Source of the DNA: a virus
Taxonomy: Duplodnaviria > Heunggongvirae > Uroviricota > Caudoviricetes
DNA length: 34,255 nucleotides
Direction: 5' to 3' (one strand)
Virus record (IMG/VR): IMGVR_UViG_638341087_000014
Coordinates: 1-34,255 of that record
Shown here: one piece after another, positions 4,684 to 4,994 of the stretch
Layout of the letters: every line of letters begins with the position of its first letter
How positions within the stretch are numbered: the stretch's first letter is position 1
The notes under the pieces: model-generated
What the model was told of the DNA's origin: nothing
What the model saw: the letters and a program-made list of their open reading frames with translations, nothing else
Database searches by the model: none
Program-made: the position numbers and the translations under genes

Positions 4684-4760
4684 GGCCCTTTAGCTCAGTT
4701 GGTCAGAGCGAGCGACTCATAATCGCCAGGTCGCTGGTTCAAGTCCAGCAAGGGCCACCA
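4684..4760 (+). tRNA. tRNA with CAU anticodon, ileX-like (tRNA-Ile2, lysidine type), often auto-annotated as tRNA-Met
   Basis: 77 nt cloverleaf folded by hand: acceptor GGCCCTT/AAGGGCC, T-arm GCTGG-TTCAAGT-CCAGC, anticodon loop CTCATAA, 3' CCA encoded. Confidence 0.8.
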
Positions 4761-4761
4761 G

Positions 4762-4838
4762 CCGCCACTAGCTCATCCGGATAGAGCATCAACCTTCTAA
4801 GTTGATGGTGCGAGGTTCGAGTCCTCGGTGGCGGGCCA
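4762..4838 (+). tRNA. tRNA-Arg (anticodon UCU)
   Basis: 77 nt: acceptor CCGCCAC/GTGGCGG, anticodon stem-loop TCAAC-CTTCTAA-GTTGA, T-arm CGAGG-TTCGAGT-CCTCG, CCA encoded. 5' end could shift by 1 nt. Confidence 0.8.
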
Positions 4839-4840
4839 GT

Positions 4841-4916
4841 GCCGACTTAGCTCAGCAGGCAGAGCAACTGACTTGTAATCAGTAGGTCACCAGTTCGATT
4901 CCGGTAGTCGGCACCA
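4841..4916 (+). tRNA. tRNA-Thr (anticodon UGU)
   Basis: 76 nt: acceptor GCCGACT/AGTCGGC, anticodon stem-loop ACTGA-CTTGTAA-TCAGT, T-loop TTCGATT, CCA encoded. Confidence 0.75.
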
Positions 4917-4919
4917 TAT

Positions 4920-4994
4920 GCGGGTATCGTATAATGGCTATTACCTCAGCCTTCCAAGCTGATGATGCGGGTTCGATTCCCGCTACCCGCTCCA
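4920..4994 (+). tRNA. tRNA-Gly (anticodon UCC), glyT-like
   Basis: 75 nt: acceptor GCGGGTA/TACCCGC, anticodon stem-loop TCAGC-CTTCCAA-GCTGA, T-arm GCGGG-TTCGATT-CCCGC, CCA encoded. Confidence 0.85.

Follow-up and report, generated by a model that had tools for sequence, protein, structure and literature searches.

Why a lambdoid phage should carry four closely packed tRNA genes between its late antiterminator gene and its lysis genes is the question raised by positions 4684-4994 of the IMG/VR virus record IMGVR_UViG_638341087_000014 (Caudoviricetes), a 34,255-bp stretch of DNA that was analyzed at its full length (the window) and that is an Escherichia coli-type lambdoid prophage. The 311-bp array encodes, in this order, tRNAs with the anticodons CAU, UCU (Arg), UGU (Thr) and UCC (Gly). 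We consider it probable that these are four functional tRNA genes of the prophage, which occupy its cargo slot, and that they supply minor isoacceptors.

Four tRNA genes between the Q-like gene and the lysis cassette

ARAGORN called exactly four tRNA genes in the whole window, all on the + strand and with the coordinates and anticodons that a preliminary description of this DNA had read from its letters (Table 1). Rfam RF00005 independently scored the four genes at 57.8-70.5 bits (E-values 4e-10 to 1e-13), so far past its gathering score of 29 that chance is excluded; the four tRNA genes are real. Each ends in an encoded CCA (4758-4760, 4836-4838, 4914-4916 and 4992-4994) and the intergenic spacers measure 1 nt (4761), 2 nt (4839-4840) and 3 nt (4917-4919), again as previously described. 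The anticodon loops (CUCAUAA, CUUCUAA, CUUGUAA and CUUCCAA) are all canonical 7-nt loops with U33 and A37, and with its RF00005 score, 7-nt loop, U33, purine at position 37 and encoded CCA each gene has the features of a bacterial elongator tRNA gene.

The array lies in the slot between the Q-like gene and the lysis genes (holins from position 6245), all on the + strand. Its earlier placement downstream of the Q-like gene (2356-2922) holds only in a loose sense, as 1.76 kb separate the two, with a terminator, a 65-amino-acid open reading frame (ORF) and a DNA methyltransferase (methylase) gene in between. Related phages carry stx, LT-II, a porin gene or a TerB gene as cargo in this slot; stx is absent from the window, which has a TerB-domain gene in the corresponding place. 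That the tRNAs might be host genes at a prophage attachment site was considered and rejected, since each gene is complete and the array lies inside the prophage, with the methylase gene on one side and the lysis cassette on the other.

Identity and mosaic origin of the tRNAs

The CAU gene shares 92.2% identity with K-12 ileY, 89.6% with ileX and 96.1% with the tRNA-Ile gene of Stx2c phage 2851. The identity elements by which TilS and IleRS recognize tRNA-Ile2 are C4-G69, C5-G68, C29-G41 and A73, and all are present in the CAU tRNA, the acceptor stem of which is GGCCCUU/AAGGGCC. Identical copies of the gene are labeled tRNA-Ile by the Prokaryotic Genome Annotation Pipeline (PGAP). On account of its identity to ileX and ileY, its ileX-type acceptor and anticodon stems and the PGAP labels on identical copies, we assign the gene to tRNA-Ile2 decoding AUA, a reading that the CAU anticodon would acquire through lysidine modification. 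The 'Met' label given by ARAGORN reflects a naive reading of the anticodon only, and an elongator or initiator tRNA-Met was rejected given the 90-92% identity to ileX and ileY and the PGAP tRNA-Ile labels.

In phage 2851, the Ile-CAU, Arg-UCG and Arg-UCU genes are presumably those known as ileZ, argN and argO. The Arg-UCU gene of the window is closest to argN (84% identity), the gene with the anticodon UCG in phage 2851, and less similar to host argU (77%) and to argO (63%). An unusual C1-G72 acceptor pair is common to it and to the Arg-UCG gene of the Stx phage, and three of the five pairs of its anticodon stem differ from those of argU. All 11 variants of this second-position scaffold retain the cloverleaf, 97.4% of its cells being paired, with compensatory double changes in two pairs and wobble-compatible changes elsewhere; pair 3-70 of the Arg tRNA alternates between G-C and A-U among the variants. 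The T stem is perfect in the Arg-UCU gene of the window but contains an A.C mismatch in the Lys and UCG versions. The scaffold carries different anticodons in different phages, since it has UCG in phage 2851 and UUU in sibling arrays, next to UCU in the window.

The UUU version of this non-host scaffold occurs in phage PhiR47_1 (locus L008, 5078-5154) and in at least 40 IMG/VR loci (e.g., L039 and L041), always with the non-canonical loop CCUUUAA (C33), the discriminator U73 and the T-stem A.C mismatch. A thrU-derived body with the anticodon UUU was observed at array position 3 in E. coli 720632 (L152, 357-432; NZ_CP025842.1), and also in L106 and L149. It carries the changes G35 to U and A26 to G in an otherwise Ile/Arg/x/Gly array and is annotated by PGAP as tRNA-Lys. 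A tRNA-Lys(UUU) thus arose here a second time, independently, and this suggests that alternative Lys tRNAs have been selected for.

The other two genes are near-copies of host genes. The Thr gene matches K-12 thrU at 74 of 76 bases (97.4%), both differences lying in the D-loop, and the Gly gene matches K-12 glyT at 73 of 75 bases (97.3%), the sole difference being pair 6-67, which is C-G in the host and, by a compensatory change, U-A here. Phage PhiR47_1 has Thr and Gly genes that do not differ at all from thrU and glyT (100% identity). The anticodon arms of the CAU, Thr and Gly tRNAs are identical at positions 28-42 to those of ileX, thrU and glyT, respectively, and these three tRNAs would be handled like ileX/ileY, thrU and glyT. 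By homology, the array is a mosaic composed of a phage-lineage pair (an ileZ-like gene and the argN scaffold) and a host-derived thrU-glyT fusion.

Relation to known tRNA arrays

A tRNA array at this position had been described as known from Shiga toxin (Stx) phages, and this is borne out by phage 2851 (record FM180578.1, on which our Stx-phage comparison rests), whose three tRNA genes are located between Q and stx2A. Like the array of the window, they are tightly spaced and follow Q and precede the cargo and lysis genes on one strand; between the two arrays, the first tRNA is 96% identical and the second has the C1-G72 scaffold in common (84%). Unlike the Stx array, the window has UCU in place of UCG, no argO homologue, no stx, appended Thr and Gly genes and a methylase gene after Q. 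The accompanying suggestion, that the array consists of the three-tRNA Stx array with Thr and Gly added, had to be abandoned because the Arg-UCU gene is homologous to argN and not to argO, and because the Thr and Gly genes are host-like; only two scaffolds are common to both arrays. The Stx three-gene array, in the sense of all its homologues in order and with the same anticodons, was not matched in the window, where the second gene has UCU instead of UCG and no further Arg tRNA is found.

The K-12 thrU-tyrU-glyT-thrT-tufB operon resembles the second half of the array in the sequence of its Thr and Gly genes (97.4% and 97.3% identity), their order and their orientation. In the window, however, tyrU and a 116-nt spacer are missing and the trinucleotide TAT joins Thr to Gly, there is no thrT or tufB, and the flanking sequences are unrelated. 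The four-tRNA arrays of E. coli prophages and of isolated phages such as vB_EcoS-689R5, vB_EcoM-606R7 and PhiR47_1 occupy the same slot, from Q or the methylase gene to the holin genes; many sibling arrays differ from that of the window in having Lys-UUU (C33) as second tRNA or the Thr-Gly pair only, and in the class of their upstream promoter. The lambdoid phages SfI, SfV, Sf6, ST64T and others of P22-like type have tRNA genes downstream of Q, in the genomic slot that the array takes in the window, and a codon-supply rationale has been put forward for such genes (PMC3636060). SfI comes close to the window: it, too, is lambdoid and has a contractile tail, and its tRNA-Thr(UGU) gene downstream of Q goes with an ACA codon bias (PMC3636060), but it has two genes (Asn-GUU and Thr-UGU) instead of four.

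Distribution of the array

Four complete E. coli genomes contain the 311-bp array without a single difference (100% identity), annotated there as Ile/Arg/Thr/Gly (e.g., NZ_CP025856.1, 73210-73520). At a coverage of at least 80% in one place, it occurs in 603 of 5,426 complete E. coli genomes (about 1 in 9), with the PGAP annotation Ile/Arg/Thr/Gly or, in many siblings, Ile/Lys/Thr/Gly, and three isolated phages in GenBank also carry it. The array is thus already known and annotated in hundreds of public genomes, and its presence in about one complete E. coli genome in nine makes it ordinary.

A scan for the Thr-NNN-Gly junction, which is specific to the phage arrays, retrieved genomes of E. 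coli, Shigella flexneri, E. albertii, E. ruysiae, Citrobacter braakii and Enterobacter hormaechei, together with at least 120 IMG/VR contigs. According to ARAGORN, 55 of the junction loci have Thr-Gly only, about 43 have CAU-Lys(UUU)-Thr-Gly and about 22 have CAU-Arg(UCU)-Thr-Gly, the type of the window, with odd variants in a few. The junction is the same Thr-TAT-Gly in 127 of 132 loci, in many phage backgrounds and several genera, and this identity points to a single ancestral Thr-Gly fusion that later spread.

Predicted transcription signals

The site at 4624-4651 is the only strong promoter-like site that a promoter scan detected on the + strand from Q to the lysis genes; 32 nt separate its end from the first tRNA (Table 1). 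Another 10/12 match, at 4908-4935, falls inside the tRNA genes and was taken as spurious. Of 83 distinct upstream sequences from sibling arrays, 65 have a promoter-like motif that agrees with the consensus in at least 9 of 12 positions, where shuffled sequences would give about 9 such cases; the count overstates independence as the 83 sequences are related by descent. A fixed-spacing motif is nevertheless present in at least three unrelated classes of upstream sequence. Most CAU-first sibling arrays have TTGCAA-17 nt-TATTAT ending 9 nt before the tRNA, and Thr-Gly-only arrays have TTGAAA or TTGCGA, 16 nt and TATTAT or TATCAT at 60-67 nt upstream. In compact siblings, Q, a terminator, the promoter and the tRNAs follow each other in this order within about 200 nt. 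From the conserved upstream motif and this compact order we infer that the tRNA genes form a transcription unit of their own within the late region, one that is probably constitutive and that Q-modified polymerase would also traverse. The terminator at 5245-5272 is the probable end of the promoter-driven tRNA transcript. The earlier statement that the array belongs to the late operon is therefore correct as to position but incomplete, since the array has a putative sigma-70-like promoter of its own and a predicted terminator downstream.

The promoter scan gave no convincing candidate for pR' directly after the Q-like gene. The terminator at 3002-3025 is a candidate tR' of a short pR' transcript, and for this type of Q the stretch 2923-3030 may be the short transcript from pR' to tR'; a sequence block with a homologous terminator precedes the tRNA promoter in sibling arrays. 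Positions 2949-3022 gave a weak match (19.8 bits, below the Rfam gathering score) to the Gifsy-1 small RNA isrK. A permissive Rfam search of the approximately 250 nt after the array and of the sequence after Q returned only sub-threshold noise (mir-983, Trp_leader and isrK) as to described RNAs.

Some further features were observed around these signals. In the interval 4995-5320, the + strand terminator at 5245-5272 faces a convergent - strand terminator at 5319-5295, and in a related genome PGAP places a doubtful small ORF across the + strand terminator. Thr-Gly-only siblings (e.g., L046, L049 and L056) share a conserved leader of about 55 nt that forms a hairpin (CGGTTCYGAGGGG...CCCYGARGAACCAAT) and is placed between promoter and tRNA-Thr, its stem sequences co-varying between phage groups; this leader is absent from the window.

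Codon usage of the phage genes

Codon usage was compared between 40 curated genes of the window (10,020 codons) and 42 annotated K-12 genes (14,748 codons). The codons read by the four tRNAs had been described as comparatively rare in enterobacteria, and are so in the 42 K-12 genes, with 2.4 ATA, 1.2 AGA, 0.7 AGG, 5.4 ACA and 6.0 GGA per 1000 codons. Their within-family fractions are higher in the phage than in the host for ATA (0.130 vs 0.042), AGA (0.074 vs 0.023), AGG (0.064 vs 0.013), ACA (0.210 vs 0.102) and GGA (0.197 vs 0.078), and also for GGG (0.230 vs 0.120). All six differences have p <= 4e-6, and for the five codons other than GGG the within-family odds ratios range from 2.3 to 5.4, with p from 4e-6 down to 2e-14. 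When 59 codons were ranked by their phage-to-host ratio, the order was AGG, AGA, ATA, CGG, GGA, ACA and GGG, so that all five primary cognate codons stand in the top six (hypergeometric probability of about 1e-6). CTA, a rare codon with no phage tRNA, is depleted and ranks 59th of 59, and the enrichment of CGA is not significant. Together the five primary cognate codons (ATA, AGA, AGG, ACA and GGA, with GGG excluded) make up 4.4% of the phage codons and 1.6% of those of the host.

Several observations weigh against codon supply as the role of the tRNAs. The K-12 sample is a single 50-kb segment with several highly expressed genes, which exaggerates the contrast. CGG, the fourth most enriched codon, has no matching tRNA in the array, and the cognate codons are nearly avoided (8.8 per 1000) in the major capsid gene (14967-15995), which is expressed more highly than any other late gene. 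The late genes of lambda, which has no tRNA genes, exceed the host in ATA, AGG, CGG and GGG alike. Relative to lambda late genes, those of the window are further enriched in GGA (odds ratio 1.69, p = 0.001), ACA (1.54, p = 0.011) and marginally AGA (1.78, p = 0.05), and the enrichment beyond lambda is limited to these three codons. The predicted enrichment of cognate codons in the phage genes is thus present, but the excess of AUA and AGG is shared with lambda and is for this reason generic. The codon bias is largely a generic lambdoid trait for which the tRNAs are not required; the tRNA set fits the codon demand of the phage very well, part of that demand being generic to lambdoid phages.

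The tail fibre gene (28446-31586) is rich in cognate codons, with 30 ACA and 22 GGA. The TerB-domain gene (140 codons), unlike its neighbors, lacks all five cognate rare codons, and this absence suggests that it is separately acquired cargo.

Genomic context

The genes and signals around the array are listed in Table 1. The methyltransferase gene is labeled 'DNA-methyltransferase' in the loci L001 and L002. The DUF968 homologue of E. coli Br_190_kylling is a single 1050-nt gene, whereas the window has two ORFs, a split that is probably due to a frameshift or stop arising from prophage decay or a sequencing error. From 8682 to 31586, lambda/21-type packaging and head genes are joined with a contractile tail, an architecture like that of the SfV/SfI-like lambdoid myoviruses.

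Table 1 Features of the tRNA array and of its surroundings in the 34,255-bp window.
Feature	Position	Strand	Evidence and remarks
Split DUF968 gene	821-1690, 1724-1987	+	Profile match
RusA gene	2000-2359	+	
Q-like late antiterminator gene	2356-2922	+	Pfam DUF1133, 348 bits; Phage_antitermQ, 29.2 bits (cutoff 26)
Strong intrinsic terminator after Q-like gene	3002-3025	+	CCCGC-TTTTT-GCGGG then T9; read from sequence
65-amino-acid ORF	3149-3346	+	
Second terminator	3333-3350	+	
N6/N4 DNA methyltransferase gene, 348 amino acids	3497-4543	+	Pfam N6_N4_Mtase, E = 1.4e-43
Sigma-70-like promoter	4624-4651	+	10/12 consensus positions; TTGAAA-16 nt-TATTAT, then GC-rich TGTGCCGCG and 32-nt leader
tRNA-Ile2 (assigned), anticodon CAU, ileX/ileY/ileZ type	4684-4760	+	ARAGORN (CAT); Rfam 70.5 bits
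tRNA-Arg (UCU), phage-specific scaffold with C1-G72 pair	4762-4838	+	ARAGORN; Rfam 57.8 bits; reads AGA/AGG
tRNA-Thr (UGU), near-copy of host thrU	4841-4916	+	ARAGORN; Rfam 69.8 bits; reads ACA, by wobble ACG/ACU
tRNA-Gly (UCC), near-copy of host glyT	4920-4994	+	ARAGORN; Rfam 65.6 bits; reads GGA/GGG
Non-coding DNA after last tRNA, about 250 nt	4995-5244		
Strong intrinsic terminator, about 250 nt past last tRNA	5245-5272	+	AACCGCC-GCACCA-GGCGGTT then T8
TerB-domain gene	5647-6072	+	Profile match
Two holin genes	6245-6968	+	Profile match
M15 endolysin gene	6965-7348	+	Profile match
Nu1/A-type terminase, portal and head genes	8682 onward	+	77% identical (nucleotide) to phage 21
Contractile tail sheath gene	22536-24011	+	
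Tail tube gene	24008-24526	+	

Possible roles of the array

Codon supply is the reading that we favor, in view of the agreement of two predictors, the structure-preserving nature of the differences, the codon ranks, the conservation of the promoter, the parallel with SfI and the wide conservation of the array. It builds on the identity and homology of the genes, on the conservation of the promoter motif and on the match in codons, and would further entail transcription, processing, modification and charging of the tRNAs and a fitness benefit. One short polycistronic precursor would be transcribed from the sigma-70-like promoter of the array and, during lytic growth, also by Q-modified, terminator-resistant RNA polymerase arriving from upstream. 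RNase P would cleave each 5' end and 3' exonucleases would trim the 1-3-nt trailers to the encoded CCA. The products would add copies of the minor host isoacceptors Ile2-CAU, Arg-UCU, Thr-UGU and Gly-UCC and so raise the decoding capacity for AUA, AGA/AGG, ACA and GGA/GGG.

The array might instead be a 'moron', constitutively expressed in the prophage and mainly helping the host to translate rare-codon-rich, horizontally acquired genes, rather than serving phage late translation. A sigma-70-like promoter downstream of terminators and a terminator after the array are typical of moron architecture, the slot is a known site for cargo and the array is widespread in E. coli prophages. We nonetheless judge this benefit to the lysogen a rather unlikely main role, as the tRNA set closely fits the codon excess of the phage itself and the Thr and Gly genes duplicate existing host genes; the idea is also compatible with codon supply and does not exclude it. 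Much the least probable, in our estimation, is that the genes are neutral passengers, gained by illegitimate recombination (Thr-Gly from the host thrU-tyrU-glyT operon) and hitch-hiking with no selected function. The 97-100% identity of the Thr and Gly genes to host genes and the existence of degenerate siblings (a 74-nt '???' tRNA, truncated copies and the T-stem A.C mismatch) would be expected of passengers, but the same Thr-TAT-Gly junction persists across the many phage backgrounds and genera described above, substitutions are compensatory or wobble-compatible and the promoter motif is maintained in each context.

A role in counter-defence, in which the phage tRNAs would replace host tRNAs destroyed by anticodon-arm nucleases, has to be weighed as well; AriB of PARIS and PrrC are such nucleases acting on tRNA-Lys. 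The cleavage of tRNA-Lys by PARIS is countered by a tRNA-Lys variant of phage T5 (PMC11464382), and P2-OLD, which is triggered by lambda and owes its killing mainly to cuts that it makes in host tRNA-Thr(UGU), at paired CNG motifs of the anticodon stem, is overcome in cells provided with phage tRNA-Thr(UGU) genes (PMC12445682). The Arg tRNA of the window stands on a non-host scaffold, with three of five anticodon-stem pairs unlike those of argU, and tRNA-Lys(UUU) arose twice at the locus of the sibling arrays on bodies other than lysT (the argN-type scaffold and the thrU body). The rescuing tRNA-Thr(UGU) genes, however, carry CNG alterations or a shortened stem, whereas host tRNA-ThrU itself protects little or not at all (PMC12445682), and the Thr and Gly tRNAs of the window keep host arms with paired CNG (CUG/CAG and CAG/CUG) and A37, which are features of P2-OLD substrates. 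The CAU arm, too, is host-identical at positions 28-42, so that the altered anticodon arm that accompanies nuclease resistance (PMC12445682) is missing from the Thr, Gly and CAU tRNAs, and only the Arg stem departs from its host counterpart, argU. No nuclease with a known specificity for tRNA-Arg(UCU) was found. The Thr gene of the window as an anti-P2-OLD tRNA was rejected because its anticodon arm is that of the host. Since three of its four tRNAs have no altered anticodon arm, we regard counter-defence as improbable for the array of the window; it remains a lead for the sibling arrays with tRNA-Lys(UUU).

A related and similarly improbable idea concerns the second gene, which may be one of a phage-specific C1-G72 'chassis', unrelated to host Arg and Lys tRNAs, whose anticodon has been re-targeted across phages (UCG, UCU or UUU), the slot then being a fast-evolving toolkit for replacing nuclease-attacked host tRNAs. 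If this were true, the slot would serve beyond an aid to codon usage, and the Arg-UCU tRNA of the window would be a nuclease-insensitive substitute for argU. The locus may be of interest for studies of tRNA-targeting defence and of phage counter-measures, with the qualification that three of the four tRNAs of the window show no nuclease-resistance changes. As it stands, the array is a routine prophage feature that calls for no new biology, and the gain is a modest, descriptive one, namely its mosaic origin, its putative promoter and a scaffold whose anticodon differs between phages.

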